A DNA stretch of 64,000 bases from Heptranchias perlo (taxonomy: Eukaryota), in the NCBI RefSeq assembly GCF_035084215.1, contig NC_090340.1, positions 5,332,001-5,396,000 of the forward strand, given 5' to 3'. Shown here piece by piece: positions 44,186 through 56,436 of this stretch; within the stretch, counting starts at the first letter, position 1; each line of letters starts with the position of its first letter. The notes beneath the pieces are model-generated. The model saw nothing but the letters and a program-made list of their open reading frames with translations, had not been told where the DNA came from and did no database searches. A program made the translations under genes and the position numbers.

Positions 44186-44314
44186 AGATTTTACTCTCAG
44201 TGGCCAGTAATTGACCTGACTACAATTTGGTAAAAAGGTGCTTTATTGAAATTCACAAAAGGATCAACACACACAATGTTGGGGCAATAGTTAACAACAC
44301 AGAGCAAGATATTT

Positions 44315-44500
44315 TTATTATTATTATTTGTTCATGGGATGTGGACGTCGCTGGCGAGGCCAGCATTTATTCCCCATCCCAAATTGCCCTTCAGAAGGTG
44401 GTGTTGAGTCGTCTTCTTGAAACTCTGCAGTCTGTGTGGTGAGGGTTCTCCCACATGCTGTTTGGAAGGGTGTTCCAAGAATTTGACACAGCGACGAATA
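44315..44500 (-). mobile_element. 3' tail of family-B LINE
   Basis: Reverse complement of the conserved tail. Confidence 0.9.
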
Positions 44501-45500
44501 TCACCGATTCCGCACTGGGTAGAGTCGTGTCTCTGTAGGAATCTTGAAGAAAGTACGCTTTCCTCCCTTCCTGGGGTATCTTCTTTGATTCACACTGCTT
44601 CTGCCCCGCCAGTGGTGACCCCTTAGACTCCTTGTCCTCAGTCCTGCTCCGCTTGGAGTCACTTCTTTTTCTGGATCGTTCGTCGAAATTACTGTTTGGT
44701 TGGTCTCCAATGCTACCAGTCGTTACTCCTGCCAAGTCTCTACAACCTGATATCAGTGCAAGGTGCTGTTTTTTATGCCTCTTTTGGGGGAGTACCCAGT
44801 GTTAGCTATTGACATGGGCCCTTACCCTATTGTGGTATCCCAAAAAGGCGAGGTGTCCAATGGTCCCTCGTGTTGTTGTTTCTTTAAGGATAAAGGGTCA
44901 GCCTTCCCCACTATCTTCCACCTTTCAGCGGTCTGCATGAACAACAAGTGTCCCACCTCTGGTCTCAACCAACCATCACCTTACAGAGTGGCTTAAGACT
45001 GTATTTGCCTCACCTTATCTACTTTTTTGCCTCCGTTAAGGTTGGGAATCCATCTTTCCCCATGCCTTCTTTGACTTCTTCAGCTTCCAGGCCAGGTGTC
45101 ATGGACCAGCCTGTAAGGCTTCACTGTTTTACGACTACCCAGCATCTGATAAGAGTCCCAGCCCTAACCAAGTCACGGGTGTTTGTTTGTGGCATCTTTT
45201 AGCTAGTTCATTTAAACCTACCAGAAGACAAAATGCTAAGGCTGCCTTTCCTGCCAGTTAATGATTTTGCGAGCTTCCTGCCCTGATATTAGTCCTGCTT
45301 GATTTACACATCCAACACCAGATTATTTAACGACACAAGTTCAGATATATTTAATTTGCGACTTGTTGGTTTTTCCGAATTGTGACGTATTCACTACCAA
45401 ATAAAAGTTTTGTTCATAACTTTTAAAAACTACAAGGGGCATAGAGACCAGTCGGAAACTATCTGAATTCAGAGGTTTTTTTTTAAACTGCGTGAGGTTG

Positions 45501-45548
<48 letters not shown>
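45501..45548. repeat. (TA)n(GA)n microsatellite inside the putative LTR
   Basis: Read directly from the sequence. Confidence 0.95.
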
Positions 45549-45654
45549 TTACATACAGACACCATTACAGCTATTTCACTTGCCCACGGTACTAATGAAC
45601 AAGGGCACAAACGTACAGTCCTTGCCTTGAGGGGGAGGAGTCCTCTCTCACCCC

Positions 45655-48101
45655 TCACTTTAGTTCCCTCAGTAACTGCGTTGTTAGCAGGTGTTCAGTA
45701 CGGCGTCTTAATTTGGCAATTATACGTTTAACAATGCGAGTAACATACATTAAGTAAATGCTCAACAGGAGCTGCAATACTACAAGGAGGTGAGAGGCAA
45801 TAGGCACCTGGGAAGGACTGATATGCTTGACGCTCTCTCCCACCAGTGTGACTCCTCCTCAAGATTGTCAATATCCTCGTCTATCAGGGCATTATTCTGC
45901 CTGAGTAGGTAGAAATGTTTCAGGGAGTTGTTTAGCCGTGTTACCAAGTCCTTGGGAGTCTTCCGTGAGTTGGGGAATGTCATATCCGAAGCTGGCCACA
46001 TAAGTGTGTTAATCAGTCTTAGAGGCGTCACATATAGTCGCATTGATTTGTGTATGACCCTCGATGTTTAACAGCACCTGCTGTTCAATCTTAGAGGAAA
46101 AATGTGCCTTAAAGCATAAGCTGGAGCTAGTGATTGGGCAAGGGATATTGTCCCGATGGAGAATACTGCTAACTGCCGTGTTCATGCAATGCTGGCCCTT
46201 GCCTTGGTGGCTGTAACGCAATGAGTGTTTCCACCCTGCCCGGGCAGACACGGAACAGGTGGTACTGCCTGTGCCCCAACTGAACCGACAGTCAGGTACA
46301 TAGTGGGTGGTGAAATATTAGGGGCACAACCAGGCACCCTGAGCCCGAGCACATCCTGATAGATTGGCGGCTATCCAGATGTAATTGACAATGACTGTCA
46401 CAAAAGAGTGGGGAGGGGGGTGTTCGTGTTTTGCTAGTACTGGTCCCTGCATTACTCGTATATTCTCCACCCTGAACACTGGACTAGCCGGCTTATCACG
46501 CCTAATAAGAGGGATCCTCAGGACAAGTCCCATAAAAGATTGTCCCTCGGATGTACCCTATTAAGCCTCCTCTTCAGTCATATTTGAGGAATCCATGCGT
46601 CATGTCTGGTGTTCCATTTTTTGAAGTCTATAATGGACACCCAGTGGGTTAGGAGCCCTGATCCGATCGGGCAGAGGTTTTCCCTGGCCTGTTCGTTCAT
46701 CCACACTCCGTTCGCTGTCCAGGTGATTCTCATAGATGTCTCAGCTGAGGCGTTCTAGGTTTCTCTTATAAGGGCATTGATAGTGTGAGCGACCTGGCTC
46801 GAATGATTTAGTACATCTAAGATATTAACCTGAGTGTTGGCCCCCTCGAAGAGGGTGCCTTCCTGGATATCATCTTCTTTTCTCATGATCTCCTGCTTTT
46901 TGTAACTCAGGGTCTGTATACTGTCGGCCATATTATTTATACGCAGTGTGTTTATCCCTGCTAGGCCTTCCACTCCCGCTAGTATTTCGTCGTATTTAAG
47001 ATCCCTCCTTGTCCTTTGGTGTGCCACACCATTGTTTAGGGTGAGCTTGGCCTGGGTGTTTTGCAAGCGTGGGGCCTCTGTGCGAGTGCAGTATTTTATA
47101 TGGTGCGAGATCTCTGGGTCCTCATTTCCAACCATCCTACTATTCGTCTCCCAGAATGTCCCTATCAGTTGGTGCATCATTTCTCTGCACAGTTGTCTGT
47201 GTTCATGCTTATACCACCAGGGCAGCCCAATATTGGTCAGGTTCAGAAGGACTGGAATGGTTTCATAATTCAGGTCATTTTGGAGAACTGTATCCGTGGA
47301 GATGACAATAAATCCATTGGCTGGCCCTGGTTGTAACTTGGGGCAACCTGTATTTGTCAGTTGGTTATGGCTAGGCTTGGGCCGCGGGGGTTGGCGTAAA
47401 GATCTAAACCTCACTACATGTGCTCCTCCATTGGGGTCGCAGCGTCTGGGAAATCGTCAGTGCACACATTGTCCCTTTGGCGGGTTGATGGTACAGGGCT
47501 GGTACCTATTGGTTGAATCACTGCTCTATGCATAGCAGAGGGACGGGTTTTCACAGTCCTTTCGTGGCTTATTGTCGCTTCCCTGGTGACAGGTAGCGTT
47601 GTGGTTCCCATGGATTCTTATCGCTCGGAAGCATGGGTAAAACCCCTCATTATATGTCCAAAGGCGGGCCAGCACAAGTCTCTGCCCCTTTCCATTAATG
47701 ACTTAGCTCTTTCCTGCTCGGGGCCGTATGACTGCCGTATCCTCACCCTGTCTTCCGATAAGCTTTGGAAATTTCCCCAAAAACTACCATCCGCTGATAA
47801 ACCCTCCCATAATCCTTACACTCGCATCATATGCACACCTTGGTGCCTTCTTTGATTGTGTATGTTGTGGTGGTTGTGTGATATTACATTCTCAAAGGAG
47901 CAGTCCCTCCTGTGTGTGAAGGTTGGAAATGGAATATGGCTCTGTCCCATTTTCCAGGCTTACGTCGCCTCCCTCTACCCTCAGCATGCAGTGCGGCTGG
48001 GGAAGCTCCCCGGGGACCCACTATGTCCATGTTCCAATCAGGATTAACCACCATGGCCACCTCAGTGTGGGTCCGAATTGACCTCTCCCTGTGTCACACA
48101 T
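45655..48101 (-). pseudogene. env: env pseudogene, about 815 codons: signal peptide, Ig-like/Cys-rich domain, furin site, F-like fusion ectodomain, TM
   Basis: Acceptor TTTTATGCCTTGTAG|ATG at 48101; WPWWLILIGTW leader; RTRR at 47004-47015; heptad repeats; TM LLVVLQLLLSIYLMYV; several stops and frameshifts. Confidence 0.8.
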
Positions 48102-48855
48102 CTACAAGGCATAAAATATAATATACCAGACTACATTTGCATGAAGAGCGGTACATAGTAACATATAAACATAGCAATGCGCATAATTGTTTGGTTATCA
48201 GTTAGTGGCTATTCGTTCATGGGAGGTGGCACATTTTTCCTTTGCCTTTCCCTTATTGTCAAGTTATCCTATCCCCATGCTGACCTCGAGGCTCGCACCA
48301 TTGTCTCCAGCAGCACCGACCTTTTTCTAAATACCCAGATGCTTACTCGTAGGGTGGAATAATTTTACTTGAGTTAAAACCACCGGATCAGTGCCAAGGC
48401 ATCTCATTAATTTATTCAGCCTTTCCTGTCTTTAACTGATTGATGTGGTATCATTGACTGCTTCCCTTCTTTCCCTTTTCTGGAAACTGTACCAGTTATA
48501 CCGCTGGACTAAGTCGGGAATGGCCCTTTCCACTTAGCTTCAAAGGTGTGACCTTTTTTTTCCCCCATAATTCAGGACCATTACCACATCTCCAACCTGG
48601 TATTCAAACGGACTGATTTTTTGTCAAAGTAGCGCTTCATCTGTTCCCTGCTCTTCCAGATTTTTGCTTCCACAAACTCATTAGTCTTGTTGACATGATC
48701 TACCATTTTCTACAGCCACCGGTATTCCAATGTTCCCAAATGCAGATTTGTTGCCATGGGCCATAACAGGGGCCCAGGTGTGCGCATAAGCCTCCATATC
48801 ATAGCCTGATATGGTGTTATGCCGGTAATGCTATGAGGAGTTGATCTAATGGCCA

Positions 48856-49770
48856 TCAGGCACATAGGCAGCATTCACTGATGATTGCACAGTTCCATTC
48901 GCAACCACTCATATAAGGAAGCAGTCCGCGCCCGCATGCAGCAAGATCTGGACAACATCCAGCTTGGGATGATAAGTGGCAAGTAACATTCGCGTCAGAC
49001 ATGAGCCAGGCGATGACCATCTCCAAAAAGCGAGAGTCGAAACCACCTCCCTTTGACATTCAACGGCATTACCATCGCCGAATCCCCCACCATCAAAATC
49101 CTGGGGGTCACCATTGACCAGAAACTTAACTGGACCAGCCACATAAATAATGTGGGTACAAGAGCAGGTCAGAGGCTGGGTAAATCTGCAGCGATTGACT
49201 CACCTCCTGACTTCACAAAGGCTTTCCACCTTCTACAAGGCACAAGTCAGGAATGTGTTGGAATACTCTCCACTTGCCTGGATGAGTGCAGCTCCAACTA
49301 TACTCAAGAAACTGGACACCATGCAGGACAATGCAGCCCGCTTGATTGGCGCCCCATCCACCGCCCTAAACATTCACTCCCTTCAACACCAGCGCACCAT
49401 GGCTGCAGGGTGTAACATCCACAGGAGGCACTGCAGCAACTCGCCAAGGCTTCTTCGACAGCACCTCCAAATCCCACGACATTTACCACATAGAAGGACA
49501 AGGGCAGCAGGCACATGAGAACAACACCCCCAACACGTTCTCCTCCAAGTCACACACCATCCTGACTTGGAAATATATCGCCGTTCCTTCATAGTCACTG
49601 TGTCAAAATCCTGGAACTCCCTACCTAACAGCAATGTGGGAGTACCTTCACCACACCGACTGCTGCGGTTCAAGAAGGCGGCTCACCACCACCTTCTCAA
49701 GGGCAATAAGGGATGGGAATAAATGCTGGCCTTGCCAGCGACGCCCACATCCCATGAACGGAAAAAAAAT
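48856..49770 (+). mobile_element. 5'-truncated family-B LINE inserted in retroviral pol
   Basis: Colinear with 33345-34258; ends in an A run. Confidence 0.95.
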
Positions 49771-50409
49771 AACAGTCAAAATAACTTCCCGTGTACTGGA
49801 GGCTTTCCATCAATCCTACAAATGTTACTCTTAGATTACAGAGGCAGGGACAACATGGTGTTAATAGCATAGACAATGTGAGACCAGATAATAATGGCCT
49901 GGTTGGGGTTCTCAATTACGGCGGTCAAGAGGGCCACCACCTCGGCATATTGGTACGTGTGGGGCATTCACTTCTGCTGGATCATTCCACCGGGAATTAA
50001 TACCGCAAAGTCCGTGTATGCTGTACCCTTTTGGTGAAATAACGAACTGAAAATGTCGACGTCTGGCGCGTTTGCTGCCGGTTGTTTAAGAACTTGGTGG
50101 TCCACACAATCTAGAAGGGGTAAGGGACATTAATGCGGATCGCATAGCAGCTGAGGAAGGAGGGTCTTTTGCTTCAGGGTGACGTCAAGAGCCTGCTGCG
50201 TCAACAGCAGTGTTCAGTGGCTCACCGAGCGGATTCAACTAAGGTATCCCCAGGCTTAAGTAGCAGTTTAAGCGGCGTATGGGGAGAGTGCAGTACCGTC
50301 GATTGTAATCCCGTAATGTATGTGAGTGTTTAACCGCCTAAAACATCGCCAACAGATGAATCTCACATGAATCAGTGCCAGGGCCATTAGCATTTGCAGA
50401 CTCTATACA

Positions 50410-50850: not shown

Positions 50851-52080
50851 TGGCCTAGCCCAACTGACCTTGTATGGCCCCAGTCTGAGCACCGCTGAGT
50901 AATTCAGTTACGAGATGTCACAGACTCCTACAGCGTAGGACTCAACGCCAGTGGCCATCGTGGTGATCACGCACTCCATGATAAAATGCACAGGGTCGAT
51001 GCTATGCTTGCAAACCCCTCACAATTTGATAGTGATAACCACATAATGTAATTTAGAAAAAACAACGTTTCCAAATATAATGGACGTGCAGCTGAGACCC
51101 ATCATCTGCAATTACTGCGCCATGTGGGAACTCCAGGATGCTCAATGTGTCCTGGAGAGCCACATGTGAAGAAAATGCCTCCAGTTGCTAGAACTCAAGC
51201 TGAGGTTTTCTGAGTTTAAGGGTCAGCTGGAGTGACTGCAGAGCATAAGGGAGTTTGAAGGTTTCCTGGATCGTATGTTCCAAGAGGTGGCCACGCCACA
51301 GCCATAAAAAGTTAAGGATAACAAGTAGGTGGCCATTCGAAAAGGTAGGTAGAGTCAGGCAGTGCAGGAATGTTCTGGGTGTGTGCCACTCTCAAACCGG
51401 TATTCAGCATTGAATACCAGTGAGGGTGACGACACCTCGAAGGAGTGCAGTCCTGAGCATAGCACCATGGGGCAGAGGATTGCACAGGGGCGCACAGTGC
51501 ATTATGGAAATGGAGTAATCATTTGGGATTCGATAGTCAGCGGACAGATAGGCGTTTCTGTGACCGTCGACGTGAGTCCCGCGTTATATGTTGCCTCCAT
51601 GGTGCTAGGGTAAAGGACATTATGAAGAAGGTGCAGAACATTCTGTGAGGTGAAAGGGAACAGCCAGATGTTGTGGTACATGTGGGTACGAATGACATAG
51701 AAAATAAAAGGGATGAGGTCCTGCAGTCAGAGTGTCAGGAGCTAGGAAGGAATTTAAAAAGCATGATCTAAACTCAGTAATCTCTACATTACTCCTAGTG
51801 CCACGGCTAGTGAATAAGAAGTATAAAGATACGGCAGGTGAACGCATGGCTAGAGACCTGGTGCAAGAGGGAGGGCTTGGGATTCTTGGGTCATGGGGAA
51901 CAGTTCTGGGGCAGGAGGGTCTTGTTCAAGACGGGCAGGTTACACCTCAACAGAGTTGGGACCAATGTTCTCGTGGGGAGGTTCATTAGTGCTGTGGGGA
52001 GAAGTTAAGCGAATTTAGCAGGGGGATGCGCACCAAGATGTAGCATTAGAAAGGAGAACCAAGGTGCACAAAGCATTGGG

Positions 52081-55000
52081 AACATAGGAACAGGAGTAGG
52101 TCATTCAGCCCCTCGAGCCTGCTCCGCCATTTGATAAGATCATGGCTGATCTGTGATCTAACTACATGTACCTGCCTTTGGCCCAATCCCTGAATTACTT
52201 TGGTTGGCAAAAAGCTATCTATCTCAGATTTAAAATGAACAATTGAGCTAGCATCAATTGCAGTTTGCGGAAGAGAGTTCCAAACTTCTACCACCCTTTG
52301 TGTGTACAAATGTTTTCTAATATCACTGCTGAAAGGTCTGGCTCTAATTTTTAGACTGTGCCCCCAACTCCGAGAATCCCCAATCAGCGGAAATAGTTTC
52401 TCTCTATCCAAGATGACTTTCCAAAGGTGCGGTGCCCAGAACTGCTCACAGTACTCCAGGTGCGGTCTCAACCGGTTTTTGTATAGCTGCAGCATAACTT
52501 CAGCCCCCTTGTACTCTAGCCCTCTAGGTATAAAGACCAGCATTTCATTAAGCTTATTGAATATTTTCTTCAATGATCTATGTACCTGAACCCTTAAGTC
52601 CCTTGGGACATCCATTGTTTTTAACCTTTTACCATTTAGATAGTACCCTGTTCTATCCTTTATTGGTCCGAAGTGGATGAACTCACATTTCCCTACATTG
52701 AATTCCATTTGCCACAATTTTGCCCGTTCACCTAATCTATCAATATCCCTTTGTAATTTTATGTTTTCATCTACACAGCTTACAATGCCACCAATCTTTG
52801 TGTCATCGGCAAACTTAGATATGAGACTTTCTATGCCTTCATCTAAGTCGTTAATAAATATTGTGAATAATTGAGGTCCCAAGACAGATCCCTGCGGGGC
52901 TCCATTAGTCACATCCTGCCAATATGAGTAACTACACATTATCCCTACTCTCTGTTGCCTTTCGCTCAGCCAACTTCCTAACCAAGTCCATACTTTCCCC
53001 TCGATTCCATGGGCTTCAATCCGAGGTAACAACCTCTTAAGTAGGACTTTATCAAATGCCTTCTGGAAGTCCATACAAATAATATCCATTGACATTTTCC
53101 TGTCCGCTAATTTAGTCACCTCTTCAAAAAATTCAAACAGGTTTGACAGGCACGACCTCCCTTTCACAAATCCATGCTAGCTTTCTCTGATTAACTATCC
53201 TTAATTATAACTATCCTTAATCACCCTATCCTTAATTATAGACTCCAGCATTTTCCCCACAACAGATGTTAGGCTAACTGGTCTACAATTCCCTGGTTTC
53301 CCTCTCTCTCCTTTCTTAAAAAGTGGAGTGACATGTGCAATTTTCCAATCTAGAGGGAGAAGGATAGGTCTGGCCCAAAAGTTAAAATTCTAAATTGGGG
53401 AAAGGCCAATTTTGATGGTATTAGACAGGAACTTTCAGAAGTTGATTGGGAGAGTCTGTTGGCAGGCAAAGGGACGTCTGGTAAGTGGGAGTCCTTCAAA
53501 AATGTGTTAACCGGGGTTCAGGGTAAGCACATTCCTTATAAAGTAAAGGGCAAGGCTGGTAGAAGTAGGGAACCTTGGATGACTCGGGAGATTGAGGCCC
53601 TAGTCAGAAAGAAGAAGGAGGCATATGACATGCATAGTCAGCTTGGATCAAGTGGATCCCTTGAAGAGTATAGAGATTGCCGGAGTAGAGTTAAGAGAGA
53701 AATCAGGAGGGCAAAAAGGGGACATGAGATTGCTTTGGCAGATAAGGCAAAGGTGAATCCAAAGAGCTTCTACAAATACATCAAGGGCAAAAGAGTAACT
53801 AGGGAGAAATTAGGGCCTCTGAAGGATCAACAAGGTCATCTATGTGCGGAACCACAAGAGATGGGTGAGATCCTAAATGAATATTTCGCATCGGTATTTA
53901 CGGTTGAGAAAGGCATGGATGTTAGGGAACTTGGGGAAATAAATAGTGATGTCTTGAGGAGTGTATATATTACAGAGAGGGAGGTGCTGGAAGTCTTAAA
54001 GCGCATCAACGTAGATAAATCTCCGGGACCTGATGAAATGTATCCCAGGACGTTATGGGAGGTTAGGGAGGATTTCCGGCAAGCTATCCTCTTTTTCTCT
54101 AAATACTGACGCAAAGTAATTATTCAATATGTCCGCCATTTCCCCATTGTCAATGACAATATCCTCACTTCCAGTTTTTAAGGGGCCAACACTGCTCCAA
54201 ACCACCCTCATTTTCCTAATATAACTATAAATGTTCTTGGCATTGCGTTTGCTATACCTTGCGATTTTATTTTCATACTCTCTTTTTGGAGATCTTACTA
54301 TCTGTTTTGTGACCCTTTGTTGATCTTTGTATCTTTCCCATTCGCCAGGATCTGTGGCATTTTTTCCCTTTTTGTGTGCCCTTTCCTTTTGTCTTATACT
54401 GCCCCTTACCTCTTTAGTTGCCCTGGCTGTTTTTCTTTGCAAGTTGAGTTCTTTCCCCTCAGGGGTATAAACCGGTTCGGTATCACGTTGAATGTTTAAT
54501 TAATCATTTCCCACTGACCATCGGTCGTTTTACCCATTAACAGATTTGCTCAGTTTACTGTGAACAGTCTCTGTCTCTGTCTCATCCCAGTGAAGTCGAT
54601 CTTACCCAAGTCTAGAATCTTAGCAAATGTTTCATATTTTTCCCATTCAAACACTACCATGAACTCGATCATTTTATGACACGCTATTGGCTCGATGTTC
54701 ACGCGCAGTTAAGCTGTGAACTGAATTGGGTTGATTAATGATTACTAAATCTCGGATGGCTTGCCCCCTTGTTCCCCTAGGAAATAATGCTGTCAAAAAC
54801 TATCCCGGAGACACTCAATAAATTCACTACCTTTCTGACAGTTGCTACTTTGCTTTTCCCAATCTATGTGAAGGTTAAAGTCTCCCATTAAGACCACTAT
54901 GCCTTTCTTACATGCTTGTCTAATCTCTGCACTGAAACAATCTAGCACATCAGAGCTGCTGCCAGTGGGTCCTATACGCAACACCCACTATAGTCTTAGG

Positions 55001-56436
55001 TCCTTTCTTATTTCTCAATTCAACCCATAAGGTCTCTGTTGTATACTTACCTCTCGTTATATCCTCCTTTATCATTGAAGTGATTTCATCTCTAATCACT
55101 AAGGCTACTCCTCCCCCTCTTCCATTTTCCCTATCTCCCCTGTAGACCTGATAGCCTGGTATATTTAGTTCCCTATCCTGACCATCCTGCAGCCATTTTT
55201 CAGTAATAGCTATCATGTCATACCCTCCACTTTGAATTTGTGCCTGTATTTCATTTAATTTATTCCTTCTACTCCGTACATTTGTATATAGAACTCTTAG
55301 TTGGGCCACGCACCCTAGCCTGTCCTTCAGTTTTGATGCTGGGTGAATCGCTTTACACCTTCTAGTTTTCACTTTATCTGTAGTGCCTAAAATACACTCT
55401 CTTTCTGCTGTTCTACGCTTTTCCCTTTCATTGTTCTTGAACAATAATTAGTACTATTTGTATTACAAATTTCGCCTCGGTCCTCCCCTCTCTTGCTGCT
55501 TTCAGCTTTACTCTCTTCTGAGTCCCCGCCCAGGTTCCCTTCCCCGTGTCACTCTAGTTTAAACCCTCCCCAAAAGCAGTAGCAACCCCCACTGCGAGGA
55601 TAATAGTCCCGTATCTGTTGAGGTGCAACCTGTCCGGCTTGTACAGATCCCGCCTTCCCCAGAATCGGTCCCAATTCCTCAGTAATCTAAATTCCTCCCT
55701 CCTGCACCAACCCTCCAGACACGCATTCATCTGGTCTATTCTGCTATCCTTATACTCACTAGCACGTGACATTGGGAGTAATCCTGAGATTATTACCCTT
55801 GAGGTCCTGCTTTTTAACTTATTTCCTAACTCTTAATATTATGCTTGCAGGACCTCATCCACCTTTTTACCTATGTCGCTGCTACGATATGTACCACGAC
55901 CTCCAGCTGTTCTCCCTCCCCCTTCAGAATGTCCTGCTGCAGCTTATTCACATCTTTTACCCTGGCACCAAGGAGGCAATATACCATCCCGGAATCACGT
56001 TTGCGGCCGCAGAAACGCCTGTATCCTCCCCTAACTATTGAATCCCCTATCACAATTGCTCTCTCGACCTTTCTCCTCCCTCCCGTACAGCTGAGCCATT
56101 CATGGTGCTCTTGTCTTGGCTCTGGCTGCACTCGCCCGAGGACCCTCTCCCCGTCCAGTACTCAGAACTGAATACTGATTGGACAGTGAGATGTTCTCAA
56201 GGGACTCGTGCACTACCTGCCTGGTCCCCCTTGTCTGTCTGGCGATAACTCAATCCCTCTCTTGCTGCACTCTCTTAAGCGGCAAGGTGACCACCTGCTG
56301 AAACGTGCTATCCACGAAACTCTCAGCCTCAAGTATGCACTGCAGTGACACCAGCTGCCTCTGAAGTTCCGAAACCCCGAGCTCTAGCTCCGCCAGCTGA
56401 CGACACTTCCTGCACATATGGTTGTCCAGGACACAG
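52081..56436 (-). mobile_element. Near full-length CR1 LINE nested in another CR1
   Basis: ORF1 AIVIGDSIVRG and DRLHLN (55554-56131); endonuclease 54793-55444; RT 52046-53167. Confidence 0.9.
53358..54075 (+). mobile_element. Well-preserved CR1 ORF2 linker fragment of a different subfamily
   Basis: Open 216-aa frame with REPWMTREI, NPKSFYKYI and DKSPGPDEMYPR. Confidence 0.85.

Follow-up and report, generated by a model that had tools for sequence, protein, structure and literature searches.

Does a shark retrovirus carry, in a single Env protein, both an immunoglobulin (Ig)-like head and a fusogen of the kind found in paramyxoviruses? The question is raised by an env remnant on the minus strand of a 64,000-nucleotide stretch of the Heptranchias perlo genome (assembly GCF_035084215.1, contig NC_090340.1, positions 5,332,001 to 5,396,000), which will be called the window and in which all positions are counted. 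A first-pass annotation of the letters had proposed that this Env captured a host Ig-like domain and bears it ahead of an F-like fusogen. The copy in the window (env at 48101-45655) is a dead 3' provirus fragment whose env is broken at its 5' end. At the level of the family, as judged from sequence comparisons, an Ig-like domain probably follows the signal peptide and precedes an F-like fusogen, all three in a single reading frame, but most of the residues first cited for it are products of a frameshift. The fuller reading, that the env of this family sets a diverged Ig-fold domain ahead of a paramyxovirus-F-like fusogen as a built-in attachment module, we consider moderately probable.

The frame that had been described, from an ATG at 48101 through six stops before 47414, reads as quoted. 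The claim that it runs without frameshift failed. A DNA search of the shark's own genome with the region gave 12 matches, one of them the window itself; of the other 11, ten were aligned (L012, an 80-base match, was left out). Compared with these ten paralogues, the window copy, and it only, has lost 4, 1, and 1 bases at about 47877, 47774, and 47668; since the losses total six bases, the original frame is restored after the third. Across nine paralogues, with codon positions counted in the first-pass frame, variation peaks at position 3 outside the shifted stretch, at position 2 within 47877-47775 (p 0.006), and at position 1 within 47774-47669 (p 0.003); before the first deletion position 3 is the most variable, with a weak signal (p 0.11). 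These shifts fit the three deletions, and so 47877-47668 had been read off-frame. About 70 codons are affected, including Cys47836, Trp47788, the residues LVLARL, and two of the six stops. The Cys-Trp-Cys spacing of 16 and 68 residues, offered as that of a V-set domain, is arithmetically right in the frame in which it was counted, but Cys47836 and Trp47788 do not belong to the family's protein. Of the proposed E/F-strand motif, only YNEGFYPC is in frame and genuine, and its Asn, which had been taken for a decayed Asp, is the residue of the family, found in all 10 copies with letters there. The first-pass frame was rejected as the true reading, having no match in Pfam, none in PDB, and none to a profile of the sister domain described below (P 0.9%). 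Compensating frameshifts can fake a motif, as the window copy shows, and the dead fragment itself adds little.

The paralogues are 9-10 kb elements with long terminal repeats (LTRs); over the 5' end of env their identity to the window is 69-84%. In them the segment and the fusogen share one frame. Their head segment displays a Cys, a V(x)EG turn, CxxC, CW, and NEGYxxC. In the window, the Ig-like segment broken by the three deletions occupies 47580-47895 (minus strand, as placed by the paralogue alignment and profiles), with family-frame marks at a Cys near 47888, CxxC at 47835-47824, CW at 47674, and NxGxYxC at 47651-47631. The window subfamily must be old, since the LTRs of one paralogue are only 85% identical to each other. 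Two paralogues were scanned, and both encode a CCHC knuckle, reverse transcriptase (RT), a tether ribonuclease H (RNase H), and a second RNase H; one encodes a protease as well. The order RT_RNaseH then RNase_H is no special mark, as dual RNase H is common to all retroviruses. The best solved relative of the RT is foamy RT, but the zf-CCHC knuckle in gag distinguishes the family from foamy viruses, whose Gag lacks a Cys-His box.

The search for intact copies led to a sister family. With a ray homologue as query, the shark's own genome gave 150 scored matches among 401 candidates, many of them in open frames of 746-831 residues, and in three sister elements the LTRs are 97.5-98.9% identical. 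This sister family of endogenous retroviruses (at least 150 matches; e.g., L022-L036 and L037-L051) is young and high in copy number, with long open envs. Its head aligns collinearly with that of the window family (24-29% identity; hhalign P 95.6%), and further subfamilies bridge the two. Between sister subfamilies, nonsynonymous divergence in the head is 0.16-0.32 against a synonymous divergence of 0.7-2.3 or saturated, and by this measure the head in long open envs is under purifying selection. Named homologues are proteins of sharks, rays, and frogs. An alignment search reached frog-type envs only, word-index searches with broken copies found no matches, and no relatives of the RT appeared in viral_contigs. 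One candidate homologue (P0014) was dropped as a repetitive chance match.

Is the head, read in the family's frame, an Ig domain? Such a fold is weakly predicted, from matches of profiles and of the sister model that are faint and consistent. In a profile search with the head, 44 of 50 matches were weak matches to the Ig superfamily (IgSF), among them CD8a (E 0.0012), and the best over the whole domain were CD8a and CRTAM, both lymphocyte surface proteins. The presumptive B-strand and F-strand Cys are 61-73 residues apart in 15 of 16 copies, and 65 apart in the window subfamily, where V-set and I-set domains range over about 60-75. Something like GxYxC ends the F strand in all 16; where DxGxYxC is expected, the first position is N in 12 copies, E in three, and D in one.

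A good deal weighs against this prediction. Two checks proposed with the original claim turned out badly for it: Pfam has no match for any copy of the window family, and every Ig score obtained outside it stays under the curated cut-off (Ig_3 leads with 17.7 bits where 30 are required); and the AlphaFold model of the window-family domain, with a predicted local distance difference test (pLDDT) of 42, gave neither an Ig match nor any usable one. The model of the sister Env likewise has a pLDDT below 50 over residues 1-236 and low template modelling (TM) scores. The C-strand Trp is present in the sister family and absent from the window subfamily. ArfGAP1, not an Ig protein, heads both the sister-only profile (E 0.012) and the widest profile (E 1.9e-5), though 28 of 34 matches to the latter are IgSF; the similarity was provisionally set aside because it is limited to one CxxC and a CW, and in a secreted protein. 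Finally, the host gene from which the head was supposed to come was not seen among the 20 of 151 matches examined: all 20 carry the head domain, and in 16 of them an env core stands beside it.

Perhaps the head is instead a beta domain peculiar to the virus, rich in disulfides, whose likeness to Ig goes no further than a few motifs and which was never captured from a host. The want of a confident model, the window-family model without an Ig structural match, the rank of ArfGAP in the two profiles, and the missing Trp would all be expected, as would an extra Cys found where residues of the E strand are usually hydrophobic. Yet sequence profiles, language-model features, and the sister model each favor IgSF, and frog members of the same Env group give Ig matches at the head position, so that we think a purely viral domain unlikely.

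The second half of the proposal, an F-like fusogen behind the segment, found support in the sister family. The model of the sister Env has a mean pLDDT of 45, with the core partly at 60-85. In a Foldseek search of PDB with this model, every listed row was a paramyxovirus or pneumovirus F or a foamy Env, the best match (E 1e-9) being F of human parainfluenza virus 3 and respiratory syncytial virus, and VIA ranks 1-15 were all F or foamy Env. TM scores were 0.15-0.26, and a profile of the full Env found no F among the PDB sequences. It also counts against the proposal that the fold was modelled on the sister family and not on the window copy, whose core (45960-47327, minus strand) is linked to it by homology to an intact sister env (E 2e-37). 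The order of parts in the window copy is that of such a fusogen: an F2-like strand from 47327, a furin-type RTRR at 47015-47004, a hydrophobic stretch that is likely the fusion peptide from about 46988, an F1-like part, and a likely transmembrane anchor at 45792-45742 followed by a short tail and stop (45655-45792); the sister model supplies the helices. The window core has further stops and a frame change between about 46630 and 46540. The core is predicted to be F-type (class Ib), with modest model confidence. The Envs of walleye epsilonretroviruses match the F-like model in BFVD as well (walleye epidermal hyperplasia virus 1, E 3.5e-10; walleye dermal sarcoma virus, E 6.7e-7; TM scores below 0.2) and may be F-type too; one literature search found nothing on an F-type Env in these viruses.

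If the Ig-like head does serve in attachment, one can picture a spliced mRNA giving rise to a single-pass Env that furin would cut at RxRR. The head, raised on the Cys/Pro-rich stalk of the N-terminal subunit, would bind a cell-surface receptor and stand in for the separate attachment protein of paramyxoviruses. Its ultimate origin would be a host IgSF gene, captured in the distant past. Both the attachment function and the host capture are what we infer for the head. As the first-pass annotation had noted, the ATG directly follows what is likely a splice acceptor (48099-48115, minus strand; a pyrimidine tract and AG): of the ten copies with letters at the start of env, AG-ATG is found in six and AG in eight. 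Contigs of four runs covering a sister element, which may be DNA, contained no splice joint.

Alternatively, the Ig-like head may serve, on virions and infected cells alike, as a decoy for the immune system or a modulator of it, with attachment seated elsewhere in Env. That CD8a and CRTAM are lymphocyte surface proteins would suit such a role, and in the accessible part of the published record the 22 Envs of lokiretroviruses with a visible N-terminus are headless, so an F-type retroviral Env apparently works without a head. However, those matches are generic as well as weak, many subfamilies retain the head, and its place ahead of the fusogen is, in the literature as far as it was available, that of known retroviral receptor-binding domains (RBDs); a decoy seems to us quite unlikely. 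That there is no domain, just an artefact of reading a decayed pseudogene, is very improbable and largely refuted, for although most of the cited residues were off-frame and their frame matches nothing, the family's frame is conserved and under constraint, and intact envs contain a domain homologous to it.

Heads of other kinds also occur on this core. In frog envs, the head position has weak matches to V-set, I-set, or VEGFR-Ig (E 0.04-0.2), and the Ig-like N-termini of three intact frog envs of the group (P0015, P0021, and P0018) share no sequence relationship with the shark head. The head of a Mustelus env is rich in Cys and has no family assignment; a search of Atlas gave no usable match for it. 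Profiles gave no match between the shark head and either the frog heads or the Mustelus head, which suggests that heads have been exchanged on a common F-type core. A tree of the F core (11 rows; two rows without the anchor motif left out) had no resolution at depth, and so the order in which heads were gained is not recoverable from it. Conceivably, though we would not call it probable, these elements constitute an undescribed lineage of retroviruses, present in sharks, rays, and frogs and separate from the published lokiretroviruses, with an F-type Env chassis and exchangeable N-terminal heads. If so, a single core would carry a six-Cys Ig head in sharks, two unrelated Ig-like heads in frogs, and a Cys-rich head that is not Ig, and there would have been repeated captures from host IgSF, with a layout like that of the coronavirus spike in a retrovirus recently active in sharks.

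The rest of the provirus fragment lies on the minus strand around these parts. Env opens with a likely signal peptide (48015-48101, hydrophobic core 48059-48033; from sequence and conservation in paralogues), and between the Ig-like segment and the core there is a Cys-rich module with a Pro-rich linker (47370-47580) without family match. Upstream of env are a degraded integrase C-terminus with a GPY/F-like end (48400-48874; tblastn with a sister integrase, 41% identity, E 1e-5) and a remnant of the second RNase H region of pol (49771-50367; 72-84% DNA identity to pol of eight paralogues). Between them an unrelated dispersed repeat, of no assigned strand (48874-49774; copies elsewhere 84-90% identical), has been inserted into pol and breaks collinearity with the paralogues. 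No further provirus parts were recognizable upstream of the pol remnant in the compared span (to 60000). Behind env comes the 3' LTR (44235-45617; 77-91% identity to paralogue LTRs by blastn), split by a microsatellite and by insertions; the window contains no second copy of the LTR. Farther upstream, at 52046-55450, the minus strand carries degraded endonuclease and RT text, which by its motifs we take to be of the long interspersed nuclear element type.

Some sister elements have peculiarities of their own. In one copy, gag and pol are separated by an in-frame TGA. The primer-binding site at L037:4230-4255 matches a tRNA-Arg(ACG) of the same genome and shares bases with the first ATG of the gag frame; comparable sites in other subfamilies are presumably also for tRNA-Arg. 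In an internally deleted element (L041:6207-8330), a gag fragment continues in frame as integrase, and a long open env follows. A shark gene model, 'Niban 1-like' (P0007), starts with env-derived sequence and may be a mis-joined model or an exonized piece of a retrovirus.

If the Ig-like head is indeed an attachment module, it would explain how a retrovirus employs an F-type fusogen without a partner attachment protein. It would also represent a third layout, beside foamy Env with its inserted RBD and loki Env with no head, and would show that capture of host IgSF domains by Env, described in one mammalian case, reaches a different fusogen class, cartilaginous fish, and frogs. Because young sister copies have long open envs, the isolated head can be tested for its structure and its ligand.

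How does this Env compare with known ones? The closest in build are those of lokiretroviruses (PMC7947760), which have an F-like Env and, in the portion of that paper available to us, are not reported from sharks. The likeness there includes dual RNase H, signal peptide, RxxR site, transmembrane anchor, an Env body opening with a similar GPxxG strand, and one published env that starts at AG-ATG. Within the same portion, however, 22 of the 23 Env entries listed (the other is partial) pass from signal peptide straight to the GPxxG strand, whereas the present family interposes 235-265 residues. Its RT has an LPQGF-type motif and, by eye, lacks motifs shared by the loki RTs in the published material at hand, and so the family is not assigned to Lokiretrovirus. 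Foamy Env, in the available text (PMC11468914), has an RBD of novel fold just before the furin site, while the present head is N-terminal and Ig-like. Paramyxovirus and pneumovirus F, with which a fusion core is predicted to be shared, needs a separate attachment protein, and its own Ig-fold domain II is another part of the chain than the present head. Heads of comparable type are known: Hotzel (10.1101/2024.03.17.585361), as far as that preprint was accessible, describes IgV-like RBD-C and SIRP-like heads on gamma- and alpha-type Env, at the N-terminus of the surface subunit, with an extra disulfide and, in the SIRP case, capture from the host. By the same partial text, those heads sit on gamma-type Env, with a clear donor and a mammalian SIRP case, and there is no mention of fish, sharks, or paramyxoviruses; the present head has an F-type core, cartilaginous fish hosts, and no traceable donor. 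An F-like Env with an Ig head was reported nowhere in the literature searched, which did not extend to subscription papers, an anamniote Env survey, or bioRxiv supplements. Class Ib scaffolds accept such binding modules, which in the coronavirus spike are N-terminal, according to the accessible part of one account (PMC11468914). Retroviral Envs with an Ig-type head have been described, and so have retroviral Envs of F-like build, neither of which the first-pass annotation took into account; it is their combination that appears to be new.
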